A DNA stretch of 64,000 bases from NCBI GenBank assembly GCA_963841735.1, contig CAWJDT010000001.1:32001-96000 (forward strand), in the 5' to 3' direction. Position 1 is the stretch's first letter. Every line of letters starts with the position of its first letter. Both the position numbers and the translations under genes were made by a program. This document shows positions 73 through 37,384 of this stretch, one piece after another. A model generated the notes under the pieces. That model was not told where the DNA came from. It did not search any database and worked only from the letters and a program-made list of their open reading frames with translations. This stretch comes from an uncultured Actinomycetes bacterium. GTDB lineage: Bacteria; Actinomycetota; Thermoleophilia; RBG-16-64-13.

Positions 73-390
73 GTGAGCCGGGAAGGTCCTCGATACGATC
101 CGAAGGAGGTCGCGCGCCTCGCACGCGAAGGGCGTGTTGTCACTACCAAGCGCGTCCAGTCATGGCTCCTTAATCACAACTATGACGCCGCCGATACGGT
201 CATCGAAGTGTTGACCTCCATCGAAACGCTAGGAAAATGGTTGAGTTCGTGCGTCTTGGGCAACTCCGAGATCGCCGATGAGTATGTCGTCACGGTCGAC
301 GAAGAAGAATGGTATGTGAAGTTCTACGTAGACAATGAGCAAGTGGTGGTAAACGTGTGGTCGTGCTGGTGGCAGGGAGTGGCTCACTAG
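73..390 (+). CDS. MqsR-like (RelE superfamily) toxin
   Basis: 105 aa with ADEY...WYVKFY...VVVNVWS pattern resembling MqsR-family toxins; directly upstream of an MqsA-type antitoxin. Confidence 0.65.
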   Translation: MSREGPRYDPKEVARLAREGRVVTTKRVQSWLLNHNYDAADTVIEVLTSIETLGKWLSSCVLGNSEIADEYVVTVDEEEWYVKFYVDNEQVVVNVWSCWWQGVAH

Positions 391-415: not shown

Positions 416-955
416 GTGTCGATGTATCCGAAGACTTGTGGCGAATGCGGTGGCGCCGTTTCGCTGTCTTGCGCCGAGGTTCCTGTGGCCTTGCGCGGAG
501 AAACGATCATGGTGCCGAATCTAGAGCACGGCCTCTGCGAAGGATGCGGCGAGGTCTTCCTCGACCTACGCGGAATGGAACAGCTGCAGAAGGAAGCCGT
601 CAAGTGCTCGAAGCAGGCCAAGGGGCTGCTTACGCCGGATGAGGTTCGAGCCCTTAGGCATTCTCTCGGTCGTTCTCAGACTGCCTTTGAACAGCTGCTT
701 GGAACGGGTCCGAAGACCGTCACCCGCTGGGAGAAGGGCACGGTATTTCAGAGTGCTACCGCCGATCGCCTCATGCGCCTGATTCGCGCCATGCCTGAGG
801 TGGTCGAGGTACTCGAAGGCGAGGACAACTGCGTGAGCTCCGTGACGCAGTTGTCTAGGCGCAATGCAGGTCTCTTCACCCCGAGTTGGCGTGAACGTAT
901 AGTGACCTCGCGCAACCTAAAGGTGGTGGTCGGTGACAACGCCGCTGCAGCTTGA
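416..955 (+). CDS. MqsA-family antitoxin (Zn-ribbon + XRE HTH) with C-terminal extension (putative ChAD)
   Basis: CGECG...CEGCGE zinc ribbon, then HTH (LTPDEVRALR...SQTAFEQLLG.GPKTVTRWEKG), then a ~40-aa tail ending DNAAAA. Confidence 0.85.
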   Translation: MSMYPKTCGECGGAVSLSCAEVPVALRGETIMVPNLEHGLCEGCGEVFLDLRGMEQLQKEAVKCSKQAKGLLTPDEVRALRHSLGRSQTAFEQLLGTGPKTVTRWEKGTVFQSATADRLMRLIRAMPEVVEVLEGEDNCVSSVTQLSRRNAGLFTPSWRERIVTSRNLKVVVGDNAAAA

Positions 956-1355
956 CGCCTACGTCATAGACAGATTGCAGGTCGATACGCTGGAGAACTT
1001 CGACGACGGTGCCACCACAATGTCAGTGCATACCGACGTTGACCCCACACACCTTCTCTGCAACGAAGACCCGGCGGCGCACCAGCTTCGACTGAAGGTC
1101 GTATTTGGCCCCTCACAACCAGGGTCTGCCCCGTACTCAGGTGAGATAGTTGGCAGAGCCTTCTTCCATGTCTCTGATGACTTGAACGCGGAGGACACAG
1201 CCAGGTACATCCTCTTGAACGGCTCAGCCATTCTCTTCGGCCTGCTCCGGGCTCAGGTCGCACAGGTCTGCGCCCTTGGCCGATGGGGCGCGTTCCTGCT
1301 TCCTCCCGTGAACTTCGTAGAAGCGCTCGAGCAGAAGGCCGAAGCGGGGACCTAG
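933..1355 (+). CDS. SecB-like chaperone of a TAC system
   Basis: SecB-like motifs PLQLDAY, PYSGEIVGRAFF, NGSAILFGLLRAQV...LLPPVNF; overlaps the antitoxin stop. Confidence 0.8.
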   Translation: MTTPLQLDAYVIDRLQVDTLENFDDGATTMSVHTDVDPTHLLCNEDPAAHQLRLKVVFGPSQPGSAPYSGEIVGRAFFHVSDDLNAEDTARYILLNGSAILFGLLRAQVAQVCALGRWGAFLLPPVNFVEALEQKAEAGT

Positions 1356-1419: not shown

Positions 1420-1915
1420 TCATGACCTTCCCCACTCGTAGGTGGCCCCCTTCACCGCCAGATAATTGCGGTCCAGCGCCGGCTGCAGCAGCAGAATCGC
1501 CCCAATCCGCCGCGCCATCCGCGTCACCTCACGCACCTCGTCGGTCTTCAGATCCCGGCCCAGGAGCGCCTTCTCCCGATAGCTCAGCCACTTCTTCATC
1601 ACCTGATATCCGCCGATGGTGTAGCTCCACACCCCCTCCGGCACCCCGCGCCAGTAAGCGACGCCGTTCAGATACACGTCCACCGCCTCATCCCCCAGTT
1701 GAGCCAGTGCCTCCTCTGCGCTGAGGCCGAGAGCCTCAGCTCCTTGCCCGATGGCCGCCAGCTCTTCGGATGTCCAAGGTCTTGCACTCGCTTTTCCTTT
1801 GCCCGGCATGGTGACGCCCCCCTGGCCGGCATGACCCCAACCGGCGGTGACGGCCAGATCACCGGTGCCCTCGTTCAGATTGCCCCCGCCCATCCGCGAG
1901 GCCACGCCCATCACC
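1420..1915 (-). pseudogene. Orphan duplicate of the 3' end of the RM gene (Type ISP C-terminal region), direct repeat copy 1
   Basis: Nucleotide and protein match to 6789-7288 (GVASR.GGGNLNEGTGDLAVTAGWG...YTIGGYQVMKKWLSYREKALLGRDL). No upstream methyltransferase portion. Confidence 0.9.
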
Positions 1916-2124
1916 CCCCCACCCACGAATGTTGTCCTTGCAACCTGCAGCCACTGGGGGTACAGTGAACTTGAATCTGACCCTGGGCTAGACTCGGCAG
2001 TAGGATTCACCGGGCCCCCGAGAAGGGGCCCTTCCTTCGCCTAGAGACGAACAATCCCCTGTGCGTCCGCGGCGCTGGCCACTTTGCACAAGACCGGATC
2101 AAGACCGACGATGTATCCGGTGCC

Positions 2125-2202
2125 TTCACCCCAGGGGTGAACGACCACTTGACAAACTCCTCACATCAGGATACCCTTCACCTGAAGGGTGAAGGGTATC
2201 CT
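2125..2202 (+). promoter_or_regulatory. HigBA promoter with two TTCACC-N5-GGTGAA operators
   Basis: TTGACA (2149-2154), N17, TACCCT (2172-2177). Palindromes at 2125-2141 and 2168-2202 (the latter with perfect 15-bp arms). Confidence 0.8.
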
Positions 2203-2221
2203 CAAAGTGCGGGAGACCCGG

Positions 2222-2515
2222 TTGCTTATCGAGTTCAAGACCAACAAGCTCAAGAAGTGCTTTGAGGACTCAAAGATGGGTCAACGCACCCTCGGCCCAG
2301 AAGTAGCCCGGAAGTACATCCAACGGATCCAACTTATCCAGCAGACCCATGACATCGACGAACTAGTGTCCCTACCAGGCCTGCGCTGCCACCCACTTGC
2401 CGGTGACCGCGAGGGCCAGCATGCAATCACACTGACCGGGTTCTATCGACTGATAGTCACAATCGAAGATGGAGTGGTCACGATACAGGAGGTCAGCAAG
2501 CACTATGGCGACTAG
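2222..2515 (+). CDS. higB: HigB-like (plasmid maintenance killer) toxin
   Basis: MLIEFKTNKLKK...PGLRCHPLAGDREGQHAITLTGFYRLI...IQEVSKHY; TTG start after GGGAG. Confidence 0.85.
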   Translation: MLIEFKTNKLKKCFEDSKMGQRTLGPEVARKYIQRIQLIQQTHDIDELVSLPGLRCHPLAGDREGQHAITLTGFYRLIVTIEDGVVTIQEVSKHYGD

Positions 2516-3608
2516 GGAGGAGATCCATTCCGATCTGGCCGTTCCGCCCGGGGAATACCTCTCCGAGGTGTTGGATGACCTTGACATGTCCCAGGCCGAT
2601 CTGGCTCGACGTATGGGCAGACCCGCTCAGGCCATCAACGAAATAGTCAAGGGCACCAAGGCGCTCACCCCCGAGACGGCTCTGCAGCTAGAGCACGTGG
2701 TCGGTGTGCCCGCTCACATTTGGCTGGGGCTGGAGGCTGAGTATCGCCTCACTCTTGCGCGGCAAACAGAGTCGGCGGAGGTCGACAAGGAGACCCAGCT
2801 GCTCGAGGCCTTTCCATACAAACAGATGGCGGAACTGGCGTGCGTGGCCCCGGTCCGCAAAGCTCAGGACAAGGTGCGAGAGCTGCGGCGGTTCTTCGGC
2901 GTCGCCTCGCTGGCGCAGCTCGGACAACAGCCTGCCTACGCTCCAGCCTTTCGAGTCGGCGGCGGTGCTCGTCAACCTTCGGAGTACGGACTGGCCGCTT
3001 GGCTGCACTGCGGACACGTGCAGGCCCAAGCGACAGAGGTCGCGTCGTTCAGCGAGACGGCTCTTCGGGCTTCCATTCCTGAACTGAGAAGACTGACCAT
3101 GGCCCCGGCAGCGGAGGTGGCCTCCGCGCTACGCGTCCGCCTTGCTGATTGCGGGATCGTCTTCGCGCTATTCCCGCACTTCCCGAAGACCTACGCGCAG
3201 GGTGCGACGTTCTGGGTTACGCCGCGACAGAAGGCGGTGGTCCTGTCGAGCATCAGGGGCAAGTGGGCCGACATCTTCTGGTTCTCGCTGTTCCACGAGC
3301 TGGGTCACCTGCTCCTGCATGGCAACGCGACCTTCGTCGAAGTCGAAGGCGGGCAAGGCACGCGCGATTCCGCCGAGGAAGAAGCCGACTCCTTCGCCCG
3401 CGATGCCCTCATCCCAGCGGCTGATTTTGCAGCATTCGCCGGGACACTGGACTTCGGCCCCGGCGCCATCACCAATTTCGCGTCAGCGATGGAGATACAT
3501 CCCGGAGTGGTGGTCGGACGCCTGCAGCACGAGCAGCTGCTGCCGGTCAACCAGGGCATCCAACTCCGGGAGCGCTACGAGTTTGGGGCGGGTGCGGCGG
3601 CGGCGTAG
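2505..3608 (+). CDS. higA: HigA-family antitoxin: HTH fused to ImmA/IrrE-like metallopeptidase domain
   Basis: PPGEYLSEVL...SQADLARRMG...INEIVKG...PETALQLE HTH; FWFSLFHELGHLLLH (HExxH) and EEEADSFA. Confidence 0.85.
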   Translation: MATREEIHSDLAVPPGEYLSEVLDDLDMSQADLARRMGRPAQAINEIVKGTKALTPETALQLEHVVGVPAHIWLGLEAEYRLTLARQTESAEVDKETQLLEAFPYKQMAELACVAPVRKAQDKVRELRRFFGVASLAQLGQQPAYAPAFRVGGGARQPSEYGLAAWLHCGHVQAQATEVASFSETALRASIPELRRLTMAPAAEVASALRVRLADCGIVFALFPHFPKTYAQGATFWVTPRQKAVVLSSIRGKWADIFWFSLFHELGHLLLHGNATFVEVEGGQGTRDSAEEEADSFARDALIPAADFAAFAGTLDFGPGAITNFASAMEIHPGVVVGRLQHEQLLPVNQGIQLRERYEFGAGAAAA

Positions 3609-3661
3609 ATCGGTGTACCGGATGGGCTGATGCTCAGACCCGTAGCCATAGGCGCTGCAGG

Positions 3662-5830
3662 TCAGGTCTTCGACATCTCCCTGTAGTGATCTAGGTAACC
3701 AGTCTTCTCGAACACCAAGCGCAGGCCCTCGCGAAACGTGTCGTAGTCGAACTCCTTCATGTCCAGGATGTTCTGCCCGAGAGAGTGAGACTCCCGGTTC
3801 ACGTAGCGACAAAACGCTTGGTACTTCGTGGCCTGCAATTCGGGCATCTGAAACACGTTGTTGAGGTCCTTTCTCCTCACGAAGTTGAAGAAGTACTCGA
3901 CTACGTTTCTCATGCAATTGGCGAGCAAGGCTGGCGGTTGGCAGGGGTCATTGATGATGGCCCAGTAAGCCTGATAGTCGTTCTGGATGTCTTCGTAAGC
4001 CATTCCAACGATTTGGCTGCCCGCGGAGTTCTTCGTCATCCGAAACAGCTTCTGATCTCTGCTTCGTCTATCGCGATTCGCGTCCGTCAACTCGTAGAAG
4101 AAGTACAAGCTGTGCGTCAGCACAAAGACTTGAGAAAAACGGTCCGACGAGAAGAAGGAACGCCGCAACAGTTGACCCACGTTGAAGACATAGACATGCG
4201 ACAGACTCGAAATCGGGTCATCAATGACCGCCACGCGACGAAGCCCCGTGTCCTCAACGCTTTGCCGCCCCTTACACAGCTCGCAGAAATACAGGAAGCT
4301 GATGATCATCTTCTCGCCCTCGCTCAGACTCCGGAAAGAAACGTCAGAATCATCCTGACGTGCTATCCGGTAAAGGGTCTCGGAGTGCTTGGTGATCGCG
4401 AAATCCTCAATACCCAAGTCGAGCAACGCAGCGTTGATGTTGCCCACGGCCTGGTCAGTATTTACCGTTTCCCGCTGAGCTGACGCGATAATCCGTCTCT
4501 GCTCCTCAACCTGCTCCTCAAACCGGGTCTTCTTATCTTCAAGCGCCTTTGTCTTGTCGTCCGACTCTTCCCGGTCCTGCAAATATCGGGAAACGGTTTG
4601 GTCGTACTGCCATCTCATCAGTTCCCAGAATTGGGCCTTTACGACATTGAGGGCGTCATCTCTGTGTCGAATCTTCTCCTGGTGCTGCCTGATTTGTTCG
4701 TTGGCACGGCTCAAGGCCTCACTAAGAGCATGAATGCTGGGCTTTGTGTTCTCAAGCTCCACCACCATGCTGGGGGTCGCCACCTTTGCCTGAAGCTTCC
4801 GAAGGTTCGCCTCCAGCTGTCGGGCACATTCGAGATGAAGCTTCGCGATCTCCGCAGAACAATCGAGCACGAGAGAGTATTCGCCGAGTTCTGGCGCGCC
4901 TCCCATGTTCGTGATGGCAGTTCGATAGGACTCTTCCAGCCCGCTGAGCGTCGATACGTCTTCCATGTATGAGTCGTCGAAGTACTGAGCGATGCTCTGC
5001 AACAGAGCGGGGGTTATTGTCTTCTCCTGGCAGAAGGGGCATGGGCTCCCCGCTTCGCCCGCGTCCTCGGGAACGTAACGTAGCCCCTCCCTCACCCAAT
5101 CCGAGTTCTCAAGCTTCTTGATTAGACCGGATACCGCACTGTCGTCGCTACCGACGATCGCCTTGGCAAGCAAAGGGTTGGATTCAACCGCGTGTTCGCA
5201 AAAAGCGAACTCCGTCAATTCGGCCAAGTCTTGCGCGGACACATCCTTGAGTGCTTCAACGTCCTTCTTGAGTTGTTCAATTGTTGTCTCAGGCTTCTCT
5301 GCCGGCTTCGTGAGCGACAAGACATGTGAAAGCAGCTTGTCCTTCTGAGCCTTGAACCCTTCGAGGCAGAACTCAAGCACGCGGTCGCCACCGCAGTGGT
5401 TCGTCTTGATCTCCCAGGTCTGCTCCATAGCCAGGGTTATCTTCTTGCCGAAGGCGGCCTTGGCCTCGTTTGTCTCCTGCGCGTTGGCGGCAAGAGCCTC
5501 TTGCAGAGCCCTAAGTTCCTGCTCAGCTCTGGATATCTTCTCCTCTGCCGCCTTGTTCTCTCTCGAAAGGCTGAATATCCCCTTGAGACTGTCAGACTCG
5601 TAGAAGTGATCTTGGACAAATCTCTGGTTGTACACCATCACAGCATCTGTCGTGTCTTGGGTCATTCGGCAATCTGCGAATCTCGCGTCACCACACCTGT
5701 AGAGGAAATCAGAGACTGTGGACTTCCCGGTGCCGTTCAGACCGTAGATTAGATTGACCTTCTTGTCAGTCACGAGGGAGGCCGTCGCACGGAAGCTGGC
5801 AACATTCGACATGTGTATCTCAGTAATCAC
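3662..5830 (-). CDS. RloC-like AAA_13/SMC-type ATPase with zinc hook and C-terminal HEPN domain
   Basis: Walker A GLNGTGKS, coiled coils around a CPFC hook, signature LSEGEK, Walker B VIDDPISSL, LTH switch, C-terminal RYVNRESH. Confidence 0.8.
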   Translation of the reverse strand: MITEIHMSNVASFRATASLVTDKKVNLIYGLNGTGKSTVSDFLYRCGDARFADCRMTQDTTDAVMVYNQRFVQDHFYESDSLKGIFSLSRENKAAEEKISRAEQELRALQEALAANAQETNEAKAAFGKKITLAMEQTWEIKTNHCGGDRVLEFCLEGFKAQKDKLLSHVLSLTKPAEKPETTIEQLKKDVEALKDVSAQDLAELTEFAFCEHAVESNPLLAKAIVGSDDSAVSGLIKKLENSDWVREGLRYVPEDAGEAGSPCPFCQEKTITPALLQSIAQYFDDSYMEDVSTLSGLEESYRTAITNMGGAPELGEYSLVLDCSAEIAKLHLECARQLEANLRKLQAKVATPSMVVELENTKPSIHALSEALSRANEQIRQHQEKIRHRDDALNVVKAQFWELMRWQYDQTVSRYLQDREESDDKTKALEDKKTRFEEQVEEQRRIIASAQRETVNTDQAVGNINAALLDLGIEDFAITKHSETLYRIARQDDSDVSFRSLSEGEKMIISFLYFCELCKGRQSVEDTGLRRVAVIDDPISSLSHVYVFNVGQLLRRSFFSSDRFSQVFVLTHSLYFFYELTDANRDRRSRDQKLFRMTKNSAGSQIVGMAYEDIQNDYQAYWAIINDPCQPPALLANCMRNVVEYFFNFVRRKDLNNVFQMPELQATKYQAFCRYVNRESHSLGQNILDMKEFDYDTFREGLRLVFEKTGYLDHYREMSKT

Positions 5831-5867
5831 AAGGGCTCACTCATCGATATTTACACGCGTCCGCATG

Positions 5868-6713
5868 TTACCTGAGTACCGCGGCGAGGTCATTCACCGC
5901 GGCTTGGACCACCAGCCAGCCGATACCGCACGTGTCCGCATCAGGGAAGGTCTTCAGAGTCCACTGCTGATAGGGGTGGATGAGGTTGCGGAACTCCCGC
6001 AGCGCGTGTGAGAACTTTTTGACGTCGAGTCCGATCCACCCGCACTCATGCGCGACGTTGATCATGTCTGAGAGCGACCAATCAGCGAAGTGCTTAACCT
6101 TGCAGGAACCATGATCTGTGGGAGCAGAAGGGCAGATATTGGCCTGCTGCGGATGCTTCTGAAACACGGCGAGCAGGAGCCCCTCAAGGAGCGACCCCAT
6201 CAGTATCGTTGCCGCAAGAAACGATCCGGAGTTCACACATGTCTGCGTCTCGGTCCACCGGTTCGCAAGTACTGCACCAAGACTAGGCTCGAGCGACAAT
6301 GCCAAGAAGTCCGGAGGCGGAAGTGGCACGAGTTCCGGCTCTCTCTCAGGCTCTTCCTGAAACGAAGGGGTCACTTTGACGAGTGCTGGTTGGACGCCGT
6401 CGAGCTTCACTCCCAGACCCTCTAGCAGAAGAATCTGGTTGAGCCTGGCAACCGCCTGAAGCGTAAGGTGCTTGTCGCCTTGGTATTCGTGAGGGTCCGC
6501 CAGGCGGCAGATAACCGCTTTGAGGTTGTTCTCAGTCAGCTGATCAAGAACACCTAGGGTCCACCACTTCCTGGTTGAGCCGTCATGGGCGAAGTTCGAG
6601 AACCCGACATTGTGGAAGAACTCCGTGAGTTCGTGACCTTTGCGGTACTTCGGGTGGTCCGGAGAATCCCCACAGATCAGGCCAGCAAGTGATACTAGTG
6701 TCTGATGATCCAT
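5868..6713 (-). CDS. AbiJ-like N-terminal domain fused to HEPN RNase (putative abortive-infection protein)
   Basis: N-terminal ICGD..YRKG.ELT.FF...G...HDGSTRKWW motif typical of AbiJ N-terminal domains; C-terminal REFRNLIHP (RxxxxH). Confidence 0.65.
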   Translation of the reverse strand: MDHQTLVSLAGLICGDSPDHPKYRKGHELTEFFHNVGFSNFAHDGSTRKWWTLGVLDQLTENNLKAVICRLADPHEYQGDKHLTLQAVARLNQILLLEGLGVKLDGVQPALVKVTPSFQEEPEREPELVPLPPPDFLALSLEPSLGAVLANRWTETQTCVNSGSFLAATILMGSLLEGLLLAVFQKHPQQANICPSAPTDHGSCKVKHFADWSLSDMINVAHECGWIGLDVKKFSHALREFRNLIHPYQQWTLKTFPDADTCGIGWLVVQAAVNDLAAVLR

Positions 6714-6788
6714 CCCACCCCCGGTCGACGACAACAAGCGCCGCACGCCCGGCACTGCTCTCTTTCGCGACGCCCAGATGCCTTCATG

Positions 6789-7288
6789 TCACCGATTCGC
6801 CCCCCACTCCCAAGTCGCCCCCTTCGCCGCCAGATAATTCGCATCCAGCTCCGGCTGCAGCAAGAGAATAGCCGCGATCCTCCGGGCCATGCGCGTGACC
6901 TCGCGCGCCTCCTCCGCCTTGAGGTCCCGCCCCAGCAGCGCCTTCTCCCGATAGCTCAGCCACTTCTTCATCACCTGATATCCGCCGATGGTGTAGTTCC
7001 ACACCCCCGCCGGCACCCCGCGCCAGTAGGCGACGCCGTTCAGATAGACGTCCACCGCCTCATCCCCCAGTTGAGCCAGCGCCTCCTCTGCGCTGAGGCC
7101 CAGAGCCTCAGCTCCTTGCCCGATGGCCGCCAGCTCTTCGGATGTCCAAGGTCTTGTATTCGCTCTTTCCTTTGCCCGGCATGGTGACGCCCCCCTGGCC
7201 GGCATGACCCCAACCGGCGGTGACGGCCAGATCGCCGGTGCCCTCGTTCAGATTGCCCCCGCCCACCCGCGAGGCCACGCCGATCACC
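6789..7288 (-). repeat. Direct repeat copy 2 (native 3' end of the RM gene)
   Basis: Aligns by eye with 1420-1915. Confidence 0.9.
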
Positions 7289-10200
7289 TTGAGCTCCGGA
7301 CGCAGGCTGCCGGTGGTGACCCCGTCGACCTCGGTCTCGGGATCGAGCAGGTCGGCCACCTTGCGGCCCAGCTCGGCCGAGGCGAGGAGCAGCTCCTTGC
7401 TGTCGGGGAGCGGGATGCGGGGCCAGTCGAGACGAAGACCGTCGGCGTTCTCGGATAAATATGCCGGCGAGTAGCCAATTGAAAGCGAGTGAAGCCAGAC
7501 GATGTTGGGTTCATCTTCCCCGCCGCCCACAGCGCAACCTAGTCTCTTGAGATAGCCCCGGGCCCCCGGCGACGCGTTCGGACCGTTCTGAGCCTCTGCG
7601 TTGTCAGCCAGACCAAAGAGGTCGATTGGTCCATGCTCGGCGCGACGCACAGCAGGAAAGCACATGCTCGCCGACCTTATGAGGTGCATGTCTGGCAGGC
7701 ATCGGGTCACGTAGAAGGGTGTGCCTTCCCAATGACGCTCGGCCTTCTGTCGAGATGTAAGGAAGAGATTGCCCGGAGCATACTCAGCGAACAAATCTGA
7801 ACGCTTCTCATCAAGAAGCTTTGTCTCCGCGTGCCAGTAGACATACCGGTCGTCAAAGGGACGGTAGGCCGTCCTCGCGAAAGTGCCGCTCTCAACACCG
7901 CGGCCTTGCAGGTAGTGGCGAGTCTGTACTGGATCGAACCGGGCGACAGGCGTCATCAGCGCAGACAGCTGACCGGCAACCTCCTGGTCGCTGACCCCAG
8001 GGTCGAAGTAGTGCGACATCCGCTTCGTCAGGGTTTCGAGTTCGATGTCCACCAGATCAGAGTCTCTGCTCGTCTTCACTCCGGGCGAAAAGACAGGCAT
8101 CAGTTCGGTCAAGAGGGGCCACAAGAAGTACTCAGTTGATGAGGACGAAGGAAAGAACGGGATTCCCAGTTCTGGAGCAGGCGTGACTGATTGATAAGAG
8201 GCCTGGTCCGCAGCGGCAGACAAGAGTTCGTCTTTCTTGTTCACGCCCCAAAAATGTCGGAAGGACACTGAGTCGCCCCCGCCAGCACGACCTGTGCGCG
8301 TCAAGAGAGAAACCGCCGTGCCGACCTGGATTCCCTCGCGGTTGTGCGGGGTGGAGAACACGCTGGGGTCGGGCTTCCCCTCGGGCGTCAGCTTTCCCGT
8401 CTTGAAGGCGTCACCGTTCAGACAATCGATCCAAATCTTGTCGAACACCTCTAAATAGTGCTCGCGCATGCCGGTGAACGATAGACCGTCGAGCCAAGAG
8501 TAATTGGAGATGAAGCAGACGATGCCCCGTTTCGTTCCCTCAACGATCTTGCGCTCGGCCATGCGAAGGAACCGCACGTATAGGTCGTTCAGTCCTCGGC
8601 CAACAGGCGCCGGCGCCTTCTTCGTCGTGCGGTAGGCGTCGGTCAGGCCCCGCTCTTCGGCGGTCGCCATCCCTGCGTAGCCGTTATAGGGCGGATTACC
8701 CAGCACCACCAAGATGGGCAGGTCCTGTTTCACATGTTCCGCGGCGTCGCGCTCCTGCTCCAGCTCCGGCAGGCCCAGCACCTGTTGGTGGCCGTGGGGC
8801 GATTCCCAGCCGGTGAGGGCGTTGGTCAGAAACACTCCCACCCGTTCGTTCTCCTCCAGGGGCAGGTGCATATTCTGGAGCAGCAGACCCAACTGCATGT
8901 GCGCTATGACAAAAGGAGCGGGCAAGATTTCAAAGCCAAAGACGCGTTTCATGGCCGCCTTCTTGACCTCGCCCGCCACCAGGGCGTCGGCCCCCTTCTC
9001 GTCCAGGGTCTGGCTGATGCGCTCCAGCACCTCCACCAGATAGGCGCCGGTGCCGCAGCAGGGGTCCAGCACGTACACGTTGGGGTCGGCCAGGCCGTCG
9101 GGCACGCCCAACTCCTCGCGCAGCACCGTGTCCACGCGGGCCACCATGTACTCCACGATCTCCGGCGGCGTGTACCACACCCCCAGCTCCTTGCGCAGCT
9201 CGGGGTCGAACGCCTCCAGGAAGGGCTCGTAGAAATACTGGACGGCGTGATGCTTCTCGAATTTGCTGAAGAATGCTCGTCTATCTACCCGGTTGAGCGC
9301 CGCGGCCGCCAGATTCAGAACCGGCACCAGCCCCAGCGAGCCCAACCGGCTGGGAGTGGCGATCTGCTCGAAGAGGGCTTTGACCACGGGCACGCGCAGC
9401 GTCCAGGCGGCTTGGCGCCACTCGAAATGGGCGCCGTCGGTGTCGCGCCGCGGGCCGTGCCGGTGCCGCTGGGCTCGTGCTCGTGACTCCACAAGACCCA
9501 GGAGGCGAACAGGCCGTAGAAGAGGGTCTGCACCAGAGTCGAACGGAAAAAGTGCTCTCCCTTTGCCCCCTCGAACTTGACACCCAGAGTCTCTTCCATA
9601 GACCTGCGCACCGCGTCCAGCGCCGGCAGCTCGGCCGACTCGACCAGGAAGCGGGCCTCCCGCGCGTAGGAAGCCAGGAACCAGGCCAGATCTTGCGGGG
9701 TCGCGAGCGTGGCTCCGGAGAGCAGCACCCGCTTGAGAAACTCCAGGAAGCGGGCGCCCTGCTCCTTCTCGGCGTTGCGGGGATGGTTGGCCAGGGTCCA
9801 GAACTCGGCTTCGGTGGGCGCTAGCGTGTAGCTCTCGAGGGTGACCGGCTTGCCGTGCTCGTCGAGGCCCAGCAGCAGAAACTCGCGTAGGGTGGTGACC
9901 AGCACCTGCCGGTAGGCGTCCAGGTAGCCGAGCACCTGAGGCGACGCCGCCACGGTGGCGGCGTCGTGGCTGGGTGGCTTGACCTCGATGGCGCCGCGCG
10001 CGGGCTTCTGGCCGCCGAGGGCATCCAGACCCGGTGGCACGCCGGCGACCGCGCCGCCCGCGCCTTTGGCCCCTCGCGACCCGCGCAGCTGATCGGCAGT
10101 GAACAGCCCGCCGTCGGGCAGACCGGCGCCGTGGTTCTTGAGGTTCATGAGGCAGCGGACCTTGGGCTTCAGCCCTCCGCCGACTTCCTCCAGCAGTTGC

Positions 10201-10292
10201 CGCAGCGCAGGGTAGTACGAAAGCTCCGAGACGCCCTCACCCGCAAGCCGTATATCGCGCACATCGCTTAGGAAGTTCTCAAGGATCCCCAA
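6789..10292 (-). CDS. Single-chain restriction-modification enzyme (PD-(D/E)XK nuclease + N6-adenine MTase + Type ISP-like specificity domain); two frameshifts
   Basis: PDGG...AIEVK nuclease; GVWYTPPEIV, VLDPCCGTG and GNPPY MTase motifs; C-terminal WPRIPLP...IGGYQVMKKWLSYR. Frame changes near 9450 and 7165. Confidence 0.85.
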
Positions 10293-10528
10293 CTGCCACC
10301 CCTCATTGAGCCTGGACTTCCGTCCATGATAGTACGAAAGGCGGACGGCAACGGTGCGGAGCCAGGCTGCAACCAACGACGGACGGGCAAAAGCGCGGAA
10401 GCCAGCGAAACTGAGACCTCGGCCAGGCCGTCACGGGGCGCGACCGGGCCGGTTTGGGAGTCTCGACTCGGAAGGACAGTGGTGCTAGAATGACGCCAGT
10501 ACAGAACCCATTCCGAACTGAGGCTGTC

Positions 10529-10774
10529 ATGTCGGTGAGCCTGTCCATCAAGGATGTGCCCGAAGAGACCCTCCACCGGCTCCGCACACGAGCAGAGCGG
10601 AATCACCGGTCGCTTCAGAAGGAGCTTCTAGCCATCGTCGAAGCGGCCGCGTTCGGCGACGAGGAATCGCCACTGACGGTGGACGAGCTGGCCGAGTACG
10701 CCAAGACCCTCGGTCTCTCACCATCAGTCGATTCCACGACGTTGATCAGGGAAATGCGCGATGGACGCTACTAA
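10529..10774 (+). CDS. FitA/Arc-like ribbon-helix-helix antitoxin (VapB)
   Basis: LSIKDVPEETLHRLRTRAERNHRSLQKEL; ends ..STTLIREMRD; overlaps the PIN gene. Upstream TCGACT-N17-TAGAAT promoter candidate. Confidence 0.85.
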   Translation: MSVSLSIKDVPEETLHRLRTRAERNHRSLQKELLAIVEAAAFGDEESPLTVDELAEYAKTLGLSPSVDSTTLIREMRDGRY

Positions 10775-11171
10775 GGCGGTTGTCTGCGACGCCTCGGTGC
10801 TCGCCGCGATCGCGTTTGAGGAGCACAACTCGACCGAGGCACGAGCGCTGACACGCTCGAGGCGACTATTGGCCCCCTCGCTTTTGAAGTACGAGATGGC
10901 GCAGGTGGCAGTCACCAAGTGCACGCTGAACCCGCATGATGCTTCCGGCATCATGCGGGCCTTCGCCTCAAGCCTCAGAGTGCCGGTGAGGCTCCTCATG
11001 CCCTCCTGGCCCGCGGTAGTCGAACTCGCCCGCGCTCACGGACTCTCTGCCTACGACGCTTGCTACCTGCAGCTCGCCTTGGAATTGCGCCTCCGCCTGG
11101 CCACACTCGACGCGCGCCTCGGTCGGGTGGCCGAAACTCTTGGGTTCAAGGCGGTGCCGCGCGCCGACTGA
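10761..11171 (+). CDS. vapC: VapC PIN-domain toxin
   Basis: VVCDASVL, APSLLKYE, GLSAYDACYLQLA...LATLDARL. Confidence 0.9.
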   Translation: MDATKAVVCDASVLAAIAFEEHNSTEARALTRSRRLLAPSLLKYEMAQVAVTKCTLNPHDASGIMRAFASSLRVPVRLLMPSWPAVVELARAHGLSAYDACYLQLALELRLRLATLDARLGRVAETLGFKAVPRAD

Positions 11172-34024: not shown

Positions 34025-35830
34025 CCGACGGGGATGCGCACCATACAGCGGGCGATCGCCAGCATCTCTTCTTCGCTGAGCAAGTGAGAGAGGCTGTTTG
34101 AGACCCAATAGAGCACGTCGTCCGTTTTCCACCACACCCGCGCGACCTTCTCGCTGCTCCCCACCACGGTGAAGACGGTGCCGTCGTAGACGACCTGCCG
34201 CCCCGCGACGGCTGCGGGAGCCTCGAGCCAGGTGGTCTCGGTGATGCTCATGTATTGGTCGGTAGAGTCTCCGTCGTGGAAGAGACGGTACAACATGGTG
34301 AAGGCAGGCTGCGTGCCACCGCCAACCTGGATATCGTACGTGGCGCCCTCGTCCGGCCTCTTCTGAACGAAGAAGTAGCCTCGAGGGATATGGGAGGGCG
34401 CCATCACCGGATAGGGCACCATCTCGGCGATCGTCTTCCAACCACCGTAGCTGGAGACCTCCTCTGGGCTCAGACGAACAGCGTATTCGGGAGGTAGAGC
34501 AAAGTCGCCACCTAGGACGACGGTGATCCGCTCCAGCGACTTATTCCCGTCGACAGAACCCGCATACACCACCTGCGGCCACCCGCTCGGCATCTGCCGC
34601 CAGGCCCGAAGGGTACCGCACGGCGGTCTTGTCCGCCGGCTCCTCGGCAATGCCCGCTTCGACCACCGTCGCTCCGAGACTGGTGAGCCACTCCGCGGCC
34701 GCTGTAGCCTCCCCTCCCCGGCCGTTGGCCGAGAGCAGGTCGATCTGCAGCCCCTCAAGTTCCGGTTCGGCGATCGTGGTCGTGGTGGTCGCCTGCCCAG
34801 CAGCCGGTTCGCCCGTCGTGGCGGCCGCCCCGCCCCCGACCACTGGTGGGGTGAGCAATTCGCCCACGGCCTTCGCCAACGCCTCCTCGTCGAGAAGCAC
34901 GTAGGACGCCCCCGCGATGGTGGCCGTGTCACCGACCAAGGTCAGTTGCCGGATGCGGCTGCTGTCTAAACCAACAAGCCACCAGGCCAGCTTGATGAAG
35001 TCGTCGGCCACCAGATCGGTGGTGATATTCGAGAACAGAGCACGCACTAGGCCCGGCAACTTCAGGGTCAAATTCCATCCCACGGCCTGCTCCCGCAGCT
35101 CGCTCAGGAAGCGCTGCTGCCGCTCCATGCGCCCGAAGTCCATGTTGCGATCATGACGGAAGCGTACGTAGTCCAGGGCGTCTGCACCCCCCATGAGCTG
35201 ATAGCCCGGCAGCACATCTATCTGCTCCCAGAGGGGGTCCTGGTAGTAGTAGCGCCGGTCGACATCCACATAGACCCCGCCGAGCGCGTCGGTCATGTCT
35301 TTGAAGGCTTCGAAATCCACCTCCATGTAGTGATCGATGTCGACGCCGGTGACCTGCTCGACGGTTGTGATGCACAAAGCCGCCCCCTTGAACGAGTACG
35401 CGGCGTTGATCTTCTGCTTGCCATACCCCGGTACTTCCACCCGCAGATCTCGGGGCAGCGACAGCACCGACAGATAGTCGTTGTCGGGGTCGATATGCAC
35501 CACGATTATGGTGTCAGACCGGCCGTTCTCTCCCTCTTCCTCCGGCCGACGGTCCGTCCCAATCAAGAGGAGGTTCATGGCCGAAGGCGACTCGGGCGCC
35601 TCGGCATTCGAGGCCACCGAGGTGAGGGTGCTGCTGGGCTCGTTGGCTAGAACGGCCAGGACCTCTTCGGGCACCCGCTGGTTGGCCTCCGACACCTGGG
35701 CCTGAAACCAGAGGTAGAACCCCCCGGCCGTGGCCAACAAGGCTACCACTAGGCCAACGGAGACCCAAAGAACGATTCGCTTCCACCCTCCGCCGAACCG
35801 TCCTTCGACTTCGTAAGGGTATAGGAGTCC
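34021..35830 (-). CDS. LCP-family glycopolymer transferase with LytR_C and extra C-terminal domain (frameshift ~34570)
   Basis: LLIGTDRR..GRSDT, SLPRDL, KINAAY, DFGRMERQQRFL. Start approximate. Confidence 0.85.
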
Positions 35831-35834
35831 TTCT

Positions 35835-37384
35835 TCAGCGCGCAGCCCCGCTTGGTATCGCGACCATCGACTGAGCCACCTTGAGCAATTCGCTGGAGTG
35901 CAGAACGTACGAGAGGGTGTTGGACACCCAGTACAGCACTCCATCCTTCTTCCACCACACGTGGTCGATGCTTTGGCTCGTGCCCACCACGGTGTAGACG
36001 ATACCGTTGACCTCCACCTCACGGCCCGGGCTCGCCGCGGGCGCCTCCAGCCAAGTGGTCTGCATGATGCCCATGTACTGGTCTTTGGACTCTCCGTCTC
36101 GGGTCAGCTGATAGACCATCTTCAGCGCCTTCTCGACCTCGTTACCTACCACAAGGTCGTACGAAACCAGGCCCTGCCGGTAGTACAGGTCGACCAAGTC
36201 GTATCCCTTGGGTATATAGGCGGGACCCAACACTTGGAACGGTTCTATTGTAGCCAGCCCGTGCCAGATCTCGCTGTCGGGGATCTCATCGGGATCGGTG
36301 GTCCACCCCGTCCCCTCTCCCCGCTGGAAGGCGTGGTGCCGTCGCCGGCCCCTTCGTCGGTTGTCCCGGTAGAAGGTTCAGTGGCCACTGTGGTAGTCGC
36401 GGCCGCGGCAGTGGGCGGCGTCATGAAGTCGTCAACCGCCTCCTCCAAGGCTCCCTCGGCCGGGATCACGTAGTAGGTGTCACCTATGAGCTGGTTGGTG
36501 CAGTTGTTGAGAGCCACCTGGCGGATACGGCTGCCATCCAGCTTGGTCACCGCCCAGTAGACCAACGAGATAATGTCGTTGGTGTCCAGGCCACTGATCC
36601 CCACATTGTCGAACAAGGCGGCGACCAGACCGGGCAACTTGAAGGTGAGGTTCCAGCCCATGGCCTGCTCCCGAAGGGCGGTGAGGAACCGCTGCTGCCG
36701 CTCCATGCGCCCGAAGTCCAGGTTGCCGTCGATCCTGTAGCGTACGTAGTCAAGCGCGTCGCGCCCACTGAGCAACTGATACCCAGGCCGGAGATCGATG
36801 AATTCGTACTCGGGGTCGGTGTTGAAATAGTGTTTGTCGATGTCGACGTAGACTCCGCCGATCTCGTCGGTCAGATCGCGGAACGCCTGAAAGTCAACCT
36901 CCACGTAGTCGGTGATGTTGACATGGGTGAGATCCTTCACGGTCTCCACGGCCAAAGCGGCGCCCCCGTAAGTGTAGGCCGAGTTGAGCTTGTCAAGGCC
37001 GTGGCCCGGCACCTCCACGCGTAGGTCGCGCGGCAGGGAGAGGATGGACAGATAGTTCTGATCTGGGTCGACATGCACCAGCATCAAGCTGTCCGACCGG
37101 ATGTATTCCCCTTGGTTGGTGGGCCGCCGGTCGATACCCATGAGCAGGATATCCCTACCGGTCGGAGTTGCGATGGCGTTTTCGGGGATCGATGACAGCG
37201 CCGAATCCAGAGACGGGTCATCGAGCTGCGCACCACCGACCTTGCACGACAGCCACAGGTACGACCCACCCGCCACCACCGCGGCCACCAATAGCACACC
37301 GCTCAGCGCCAGCAGGAGCCCGCGCAAAACGCGGCGCTTCCGCAATCGCTGGCTTGTATAGGTGGTGTATGGTCTACCGCTCAC
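35835..37384 (-). CDS. LCP-family glycopolymer transferase with extra C-terminal domain (frameshift ~36290)
   Basis: LLMGIDRR..RSDS, SLPRDL, DFGRMERQQRFL. C-terminal domain paralogous to 34021-34500. Confidence 0.85.

Follow-up and report, generated by a model that had tools for sequence, protein, structure and literature searches.

How does a defence island that carries no integrase gain and exchange its cargo? For the integrase-less defence hotspots of Escherichia coli and Pseudomonas, a passage of PMC10121019 describes the gain and swapping of cargo as an open question. This question is raised anew by a locus of an uncultured Actinomycetes bacterium (source genome G000). The locus lies in a stretch of 64,000 nucleotides from contig CAWJDT010000001.1 (the window; C1:32001-96000, with repeat copies beyond the window given by their C1 positions). 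A first-pass annotation had proposed that the 3' end of a restriction-modification (RM) gene recurs behind the gene and acts as a homology arm in an integrase-free cassette exchange system for defence genes. From our analysis of this locus and its relatives, we consider homology-anchored accretion the fairly probable way in which the island grows, the anchor being the conserved 3' arm of the gene, which codes for a Type IIG RM enzyme.

BLASTN confirmed the same-orientation repeat of the RM 3' end. Positions 1430-1915 and 6802-7288 are identical at 447 of 487 nt (92%), with one 1-nt gap and a spacing of 5372/5373 bp, and form the largest direct repeat of the window. Over 1566-1915, where about a dozen differences had been counted by eye, the alignment has 11 substitutions and one indel; the other 28 mismatches sit in the final ~136 bp, in line with the stronger divergence claimed for that end. 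Only two copies had been reported, but a whole-genome search found four, two of them to the left of the window. Copy A (6802-7288, minus strand) is the conserved 3' arm of the main gene itself. Copy B (1430-1915, minus strand) is, according to BLASTN and its reading frame, a displaced RM 3' end (stump) which is in frame and free of stop codons. Stump C (C1:31502-31932) has an internal stop; its edge is 69 bp left of the window, with positions 1-72 forming the spacer that leads to it. Stump D (C1:22619-22924), also left of the window, has an internal deletion. The four copies share 91-96% identity and have unique flanks. The proposed alternation of RM ends and cargo thus holds and extends further: four RM 3' ends divide four defence blocks in an island of ~22 kb, and the cargo differs behind each copy.

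At the DNA level, the RM gene can be aligned to those of its relatives (8/8) at both ends, for ~2000 nt from its start and for ~600 nt up to its end. The ~850 nt between them, the variable target-recognition region (TRD; 7455-8310, minus strand), show no DNA similarity to any of the eight. The TRD thus separates a 5' arm of ~2 kb from a 3' arm of ~0.6 kb, and the repeat corresponds to the conserved arm behind it. Read in gene direction, the island begins with the divergent fitAB genes, followed by the RM gene ending in A, an AbiJ-like gene, an RloC-like gene, HigBA, a DUF3800 remnant, B, a toxin-antitoxin-chaperone (TAC) module, and C. Beyond C follow DUF4238, NYN, an HTH-IrrE-PIN-like trio, DUF5131, DEDDh, DUF3800, AbiEi, an AbiEii remnant, and then D, beyond which lie DUF4760, DEDDh, and RHH-ParE. 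With a GC content of 57.5-60.8%, the cargo blocks are below both the RM gene (64.2%) and the contig (63.3%).

The divergence between the copies is uneven. A and B differ by 4.5% over the first 288 nt and by 19% over the last 145 nt; counted as mismatches, this is 8/285 versus 28/144 (Fisher p 2e-8). Between A and the relatives G011, G019, G017, and G005, divergence is 14-18% in the proximal part and 17-21% in the last 145 nt. Because interspecies pairs diverge so much proximally, where A and B hardly differ, we rejected protein constraint as the sole cause of the gradient; the identity gradient noticed in the first-pass annotation is real and goes beyond such constraint. The dN/dS ratios are 0.22 for A-B, 0.27 for A-C, 0.22 for the two stumps B-C, and 0.32-0.39 for pairs with D. 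When a duplication followed by decay was simulated with one branch neutral and the other at 0.15, the non-synonymous fraction was ~0.6, compared to the observed 0.39-0.41 (p 0.002-0.017). The excess of silent differences also holds between stumps B and C (p 0.01-0.017). Simple duplication followed by decay thus does not fit, even between two stumps. For 13 gene-stump pairs in nine other loci, the pooled dN/dS is 0.33. As far as sequences can tell, the stumps look like the ends of formerly working alleles. A tree built from the final 195 nt places B and C with copies from G012 and not with A (100/94). Crossovers within the arm, with tails that travel together with the cargo, would be expected to give such an arm, homogenised proximally and with foreign tails distally.

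The close homologues of the gene come from records titled Thermoleophilia, Gaiellales, or Actinomycetes. Among 61 genomes of the family, a query with the 3' arm found approximately 28 places outside the main genes in 16 genomes, nine of which were inspected (G000, G005, G006, G008, G012, G015, G017, G050, and G059). In the same 61 genomes, a query of the same length from the methyltransferase (MTase) core found no extra places and an N-terminal query found three; these control queries were taken from G019 and differ in sensitivity from the 3'-arm query. Among the family genes with contiguous downstream DNA, stumps are present in G000, G005, G012, and G017. We also surveyed 80 loci from GTDB, chosen by N-terminal motifs and dropped if they had no whole gene or <2 kb downstream (12), and 80 metagenome loci, of which 39 have a whole gene and 23 of these at least 2 kb downstream; the loci are partly the same record in two collections or belong to one genome, so that the counts are not independent. 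Same-strand downstream pieces occur in 6/58 GTDB loci, all from the last 550 nt of the gene. Four of these are among the 11 loci in records titled Thermoleophilia or Actinomycetota and two among the 47 elsewhere (Armatimonadota, and Blastocatellia with an inversion). Upstream pieces were found in 3/63 loci, and stumps in 2/23 metagenome loci. The stump pattern is enriched in this lineage rather than general.

These counts bear on the idea that whole units of RM gene and cargo were added in tandem, with the older RM genes eroded from the 5' side down to the 3' arm. Erosion is indeed seen: stumps with internal deletions are common (D, G005, and G015), one stump of G059 (L045) keeps a TRD-region motif fused to the tail, and lone fragments start at reference aa 875-934. 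We nevertheless consider tandem addition quite unlikely, as there is no second full gene or MTase-core fragment beside any gene, the MTase-core query lacks extra places in the 61 genomes, and no MTase-core fragment is among the surveyed downstream pieces.

The cargo itself varies as predicted, with the gene behind the RM gene differing nearly everywhere. The first gene is AbiJ-like, Fic, T5orf172, a kinase, an AAA ATPase, AbiEi_2, MerR-DUF433, NYN, or AAA_21, the cargo genes of relatives having been picked heuristically and scanned in part. What exists among relatives is thus not a fixed single duplication with invariant cargo and without parallel but a set of comparable loci with different cargo. 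Several combinations of tail and cargo recur. MerR-DUF433 occurs behind intact genes (L107 and L143) and behind stumps (L102 and L158) with 70-80% likeness, Fic behind the gene of L158 and a stump of L146 (72%), and the gene tail of L110 with the adjoining 180 bp matches stump 3 of L102 (81%). Because the same follower is found directly behind intact genes of several lineages, it appears to travel with the tail. Four genomes (G000, G006, G015, and G050) have AbiE in front of a stump, but what follows the stump differs; AbiE does not precede a stump in G024. The 5' edges of the stumps are sharp and lie between -579 and -87. Such sharp but variable edges, together with the same unit of tail and follower behind genes and behind stumps, correspond to displacement by homology-facilitated illegitimate recombination (HFIR), which joins a homologous anchor to a variable non-homologous junction and displaces the old module downstream.

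Duplication of a gene end is the usual footprint of site-specific integration. The RM 3' end might therefore be the attachment site of elements which restore the gene end and are moved by a recombinase acting in trans. The starts of stumps C and D lie 3 nt apart (-431 and -434), and the genome (89.7% complete) has eight tyrosine-recombinase matches elsewhere. The nearest of these on C1 is, however, ~770 kb away, the stump edges have no motif in common, and no integrase family was found among the cargo proteins scanned, for which the ORFs (open reading frames) were chosen heuristically. This explanation is largely refuted and very unlikely. Neither the window nor the island has a match to tyrosine or serine recombinases, rve, IS110, DDE_Tnp_1, IS256, or IS200, other transposase families not having been searched; for recombinases and these five transposase families, the claimed absence from the window is borne out. 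The hallmarks of integrons or site-specific elements, a linked integrase and a fixed att core, were not found in the island.

We therefore return to homology-anchored accretion, which we picture as follows. Incoming DNA from another strain or species would carry the donor's RM 3' end and, behind it, the donor's cargo. A first crossover, homologous and inside the RM gene, would provide the gene with the donor's tail; being homologous, it would keep the reading frame. The far end would join illegitimately inside the resident 3' arm, as in HFIR, or alternatively by homology via a stump already present in the donor. This would push the old 3' end, still joined to its old neighbour, downstream as a stump. 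Repeated rounds would yield arrays of gene, cargo, stump, and cargo in which the newest block adjoins the gene. The stumps would then erode and act as further points of crossover and deletion. As to the route of DNA entry, comEC and dprA are present in the genome; both are also matched in E. coli and most control genomes and thus do not show competence.

Much the same anatomy could result from classical insertion with long target duplication. Foreign cargo would insert, perhaps after a break by the RM nuclease, the recipient's own RM 3' end would be copied, and later allelic replacement would make the copies diverge. Published examples of such insertions at RM loci have imperfect repeats that reach ~400 bp, and in one of them the target is a Type IIG gene (in the part of PMC2853133 cited here). 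In five loci (G005, G012, L146, L107, and L167), the stumps cluster with their own gene, which also fits a local duplication and weighs against donor-supplied tails. Repeated allelic replacement would, however, be needed both for the silent-site excess between stumps and for tails as distant as other genera, and the recurrence of one follower next to intact genes in several lineages implies that it travels with the tail. We thus regard target duplication as unlikely.

Further observations weigh against accretion at the 3' arm. Two of the 13 gene-stump pairs have dN/dS >1 (L146 and L110, which are short and have few sites). Cargo without a stump follows the gene in G011, G019, G024, and G077, and in G022 there is only a 35-nt piece. 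No stump was found within up to 10 kb in 52/58 GTDB and 21/23 metagenome loci, and no exact junction of cargo to stump recurs in two genomes. The closest sequencing runs, two soil runs, share 5-7% of words with the source, and their contigs, at 80% likeness, represent relatives. One contig in each run links a DUF5131 end with an RM 3' piece; given the 80% likeness, this is no more than a hint. Finally, duplicates or remnants are also left by DEDDh, the DUF3800 tail, and AbiEii. The latter point, and a TAC-HigA block which is common to G000 and G012 and spans the position of B, make the locus look more like a recombination hotspot than a system of discrete cassettes. Of the cassette exchange originally proposed, the addition of cargo by a homology arm without a recombinase is supported by the copies, the cargo turnover, and the shared units of tail and cargo; a dedicated system was an overstatement in view of the variable stump edges and of blocks that span a repeat. 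In G006, the blocks between stumps (L026/L027, C3:59649-80060) include ABC transporter-like genes, peptidase M24, an epimerase, UPF0261, an ECF sigma factor, and an SLH protein. With such metabolic cargo, the hotspot is not restricted to defence genes.

In terms of chromosomal address within the genus, the RM island lies between guaB and recO in G000, G005, and G011, and stumps are found beside guaB in G006 and G008. In ten other genomes, the stretch between guaB and recO measures 13 bp to 8 kb and has no RM gene. The search for an empty allele yielded single-copy loci with other cargo (G011, G019, and G024) and, among these ten, two collapsed remnants without the gene, in which only the outer ends of the island are left. 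The collapsed island of G010 (L221:15309-16848) keeps fitAB, a 70-bp RM piece, and RHH-ParE; in the sister genome G004 (L229:5105-5362), what is left is 37 bp of fitB and a 57-bp piece of the DNA behind stump D. G004 had been considered as an ancestral empty site, which was dropped when these two short island remnants were found. RM islands are also found at other addresses. That of G012 is located between glnS and gltX, yet G000 and G012 have in common TAC (75%), DEDDh (85-86%), and part of HigA (82%). The array follows the RM gene and not the chromosomal address.

Recombination between copies is predicted to cause the loss of 5372, 1930, or 9011 bp, the first of which corresponds to the circle proposed in the first-pass annotation, with HigBA as an addiction module against the loss. 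A circular excised form is a criterion for unconventional circularizable structures. The HigA-IrrE/M78 fusion of this pair (2189-3608) scores as component B of PD-Lambda-2 (1e-35), and the HigBA-like pair may thus be less a plain addiction pair than an anti-phage module. Profile scans recognised no toxin-antitoxin (TA) pair in the cargo block next to the gene in several relatives (G005, G017, and L167, for example).

Two frameshifts, one of them inside the repeat, divide the anchor gene of the assembly into three ORFs. The N-terminal piece (9315-10376, minus strand, with the real start near 10292) has a PD..EVK nuclease motif read by eye, matches REase_MTase_IIG of PADLOC weakly, and is 78% like aa 1-274 of the G019 homologue. 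The middle piece (7108-9492, minus strand) carries the N6 MTase (DPCCGTG, NPPY) and the TRD, with frameshifts on both sides which are probably assembly errors. The C-terminal piece (6789-7205, minus strand) has the Type_ISP_C tail. Relatives encode the enzyme as a single ORF of ~1150 aa, and the PADLOC call for the gene is REase_MTase_IIG (5e-72). N6-MTase motifs I and IV, the TRD, and an N-terminal PD-(D/E)xK nuclease in one chain agree with the DrdV-like Type IIG/IIL enzymes. Among solved structures, DrdV (PDB 7LO5) comes closest to the intact G019 homologue, with E 1.6e-29 over aa 342-949; it likewise has nuclease, MTase, and TRD in one chain but is shorter (1029 aa). A Type ISP enzyme like LlaGI or LlaBIII would have an SF2 helicase-ATPase between nuclease and MTase. 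No helicase family was found in a profile search of the RM gene and matches to 5FFJ and 4XQK are restricted to the MTase part, so that this assignment was rejected; "type ISP" is merely the annotation name of homologues. Judged by its domains, the anchor gene is thus a DrdV-like Type IIG and not a Type ISP enzyme.

The two frameshifts are uninformative, because 16 of 72 orthologue queries (taken from G011 and G005, some of them redundant) are also frameshifted in the source assembly; nine queries show stops. Several of the affected places lie inside the window (C1:57853-60486, 72888-75863, and 89332-91183). Contigs of related soil organisms are devoid of the extra base found inside the source repeat. 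Stops or shifts are also present in the RM genes of some relatives. Given the background of indels, we did not accept that the gene is a pseudogene; the frameshifts probably reflect assembly noise, with real decay as a possibility. An indel-prone assembly might also raise the suspicion that the repeats themselves are artefacts. This is extremely improbable for four copies with 91-96% identity, unique flanks, and codon-structured differences, and for a layout that recurs in many independent assemblies.

Other matches to the RM family were also noted. Plasmid records matching the RM gene number 253 in a whole-gene comparison; coverage reaches 80% or more of the gene in eight of them, all with <60% identity, and the phage collection has no match to the 3' arm. 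A lone N-terminal fragment with 77% DNA identity (L230:10419-11075; G000 C5:102435-103075) adjoins a gene which by eye is uvrB-like, and lone N-terminal matches occur likewise in G049 and G050. A distant fragment resembling the Type_ISP_C tail (29-36% aa identity, opposite strand; L231:5183-5503, G000 C1:8183-8494) lies 7 kb beyond guaB. A 718-bp soil contig matches the 3' arm (L039:16599-16828, window ~7199-7428) with four differences in 230 nt and is then unlike at the TRD edge, which suggests a close relative with a different TRD.

The first cargo block of the source island starts with a 295-aa protein (5868-6755, minus strand), an AbiJ-NTD/HEPN-like candidate without a match in Pfam, PADLOC, or NCBIfam. 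It is followed by an RloC-like ABC ATPase (3662-5830, minus strand; AAA_13; PADLOC PDC-S06, 832 bits), a HigA HTH protein fused to an IrrE/M78 peptidase (2469-3608, plus strand; PD-Lambda-2 B-like), and a HigB-like toxin (2189-2515, plus strand). Among the genes claimed to lie between the copies, the RloC-like gene and HigBA are backed by profiles, and the AbiJ/HEPN label is based on Atlas look-alikes only. A remnant of a DUF3800 gene, comprising the 3' end and the trailer (1930-2115, minus strand), is 87% like the intact copy at C1:24596-24782 and forms a sharp junction into B. In the second block, the TAC claimed beyond the orphan copy could be verified. It consists of a SecB-like chaperone (933-1355, plus strand; PD-T4-9 C-like), an MqsA-type antitoxin (416-955, plus strand), and an MqsR-like toxin (73-390, plus strand; 26% to the MqsR_toxin protein of L214, E 1e-5 pairwise). 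At the upstream edge of the island, a FitA-RHH and PIN TA pair (10454-11171, plus strand) is divergent from the RM gene and occurs also in G005, G011, G007, and G010. Two DEDDh exonuclease copies (L001:9321-9931 and L001:13558-14168) are 91% identical and both appear to be frameshifted at the same position, which may be an inherited break, a systematic assembly error, or recoding.

Stumps might instead be kept because they encode a small C-terminal protein or provide the promoter of the next gene. B is in frame and has an ATG where A has ATC. On the other hand, C has its stop, D has its deletion, many stumps of relatives are broken, and neither A nor B has a promoter-like site. The scans for promoters and terminators gave counts as in shuffled sequences (3 vs. 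2.2 and 10 vs. 8.0). This possibility is highly improbable. The G000 island has no Rfam match, and the sole match among five loci is a fluoride riboswitch in the flank of G024. An imperfect hairpin of ~45 bp with an exact 21-nt core, also without an Rfam match, occurs at five places in 4/61 family genomes from three genera (L001:12167-12211 and L001:15251-15295, i.e., C1:24167 and 27251; L024:4559; L031:14494; L233:75-95). Four of the five copies are inside RM islands in the same orientation, one of them ~100 bp behind the RM stop. For one copy, the surrounding 126 nt fold strongly (z -6.4) and are preceded by a sequence which by eye is promoter-like. An attC-like site was considered for this hairpin and dropped because of its rarity and its absence from most islands. 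The window contains a second direct repeat (34079-34296 and 35902-36119; 218 nt, 70% identity, 1823 bp apart), which probably represents paralogous domains.

The locus family can be read as the fossil record of a concrete route in which displaced ends of the anchor gene mark successive insertions. Stumps are a simple sequence marker for the block edges of islands, and the mechanism is testable by laboratory rebuilding. By position, the 295-aa first cargo gene, DUF4238, DUF4760, and the 359-aa gene of G017 become defence candidates. A more far-reaching and tentative version would have the arm behind the TRD act as a shared docking arm in a polarised, recombinase-free conveyor belt of defence genes. 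Blocks would be exchanged between genera and sites by two homologous crossovers and land behind the RM gene, often overlapping its stop codon. Circles would be stabilised by TA pairs, and the exchange might be stimulated by cuts of the enzyme. If so, the block order would record the history of acquisition, uncharacterised genes behind any stump would be defence candidates, and the island would resemble an integron without integrase.

Among known systems, the pneumococcal tvr locus (SpnIV) is also an RM locus in which direct repeats enclose a TA pair, and its circles form partly without TvrR (Kwun 2018, in the text of PMC6265443 at hand). It has its own tyrosine recombinase and shuffles TRDs for specificity; the G000 stumps, in contrast, start behind the TRD and have no recombinase between or linked to the repeats. 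The E. coli immigration control region (ICR) and hotspot 37 are likewise fixed, integrase-less sites with highly variable defence cargo, and for hotspot 37 the mode of mobilisation was not readily determined by its authors (cited passages of PMC12707154 and PMC10121019). In these cases, cargo is replaced between conserved flanks or at a tRNA or integrase anchor, and stumps of an anchor gene between blocks are not a described feature of the cited passages.

Closer parallels are the insertions with long target duplication at RM loci (Furuta 2010, cited sections of PMC2853133). These leave imperfect direct repeats of up to ~400 bp without mobile genes, and the repeats often span stop codons; in one Helicobacter pylori case, a Type IIG RM gene is the target. 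Our locus shares the long, variable, imperfect repeats (487 bp, thus above 30 bp), an insert below 20 kb (5.37 kb), the lack of recombinase or transposase family matches nearby, and a spanned stop codon, by which the target would stay intact. In the cases of those sections, the insert is itself an RM system and the events are single. Here, the RM gene is the recurring anchor and the inserts are diverse non-RM defence genes (AbiJ-like, RloC-like, and HigBA instead of R and M genes; only the block of G012 has a GmrSD domain), the events are iterated (three stumps), and the copies look donor-supplied. HFIR displacement was proposed for the T6SS (type VI secretion system) effector-immunity arrays of Vibrio cholerae and is cited for Rhs too (Kirchberger 2017, cited sections of PMC5361080). 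There as well, incoming DNA is anchored by a conserved segment of a gene and the old module moves downstream without an integrase; complex arrays then spread by homologous recombination. The variable part of T6SS arrays is the toxin tip of the anchor gene with its immunity gene, whereas here a defence enzyme provides its conserved end as the anchor, and the variable part consists of separate anti-phage and TA genes. In the open-access literature, we found no description of iterated Type IIG tail stumps that separate diverse defence blocks across a lineage. As far as the cited sections describe the two processes, the locus works like Furuta-type insertion and like the HFIR displacement arrays, single events of this type having already been published.

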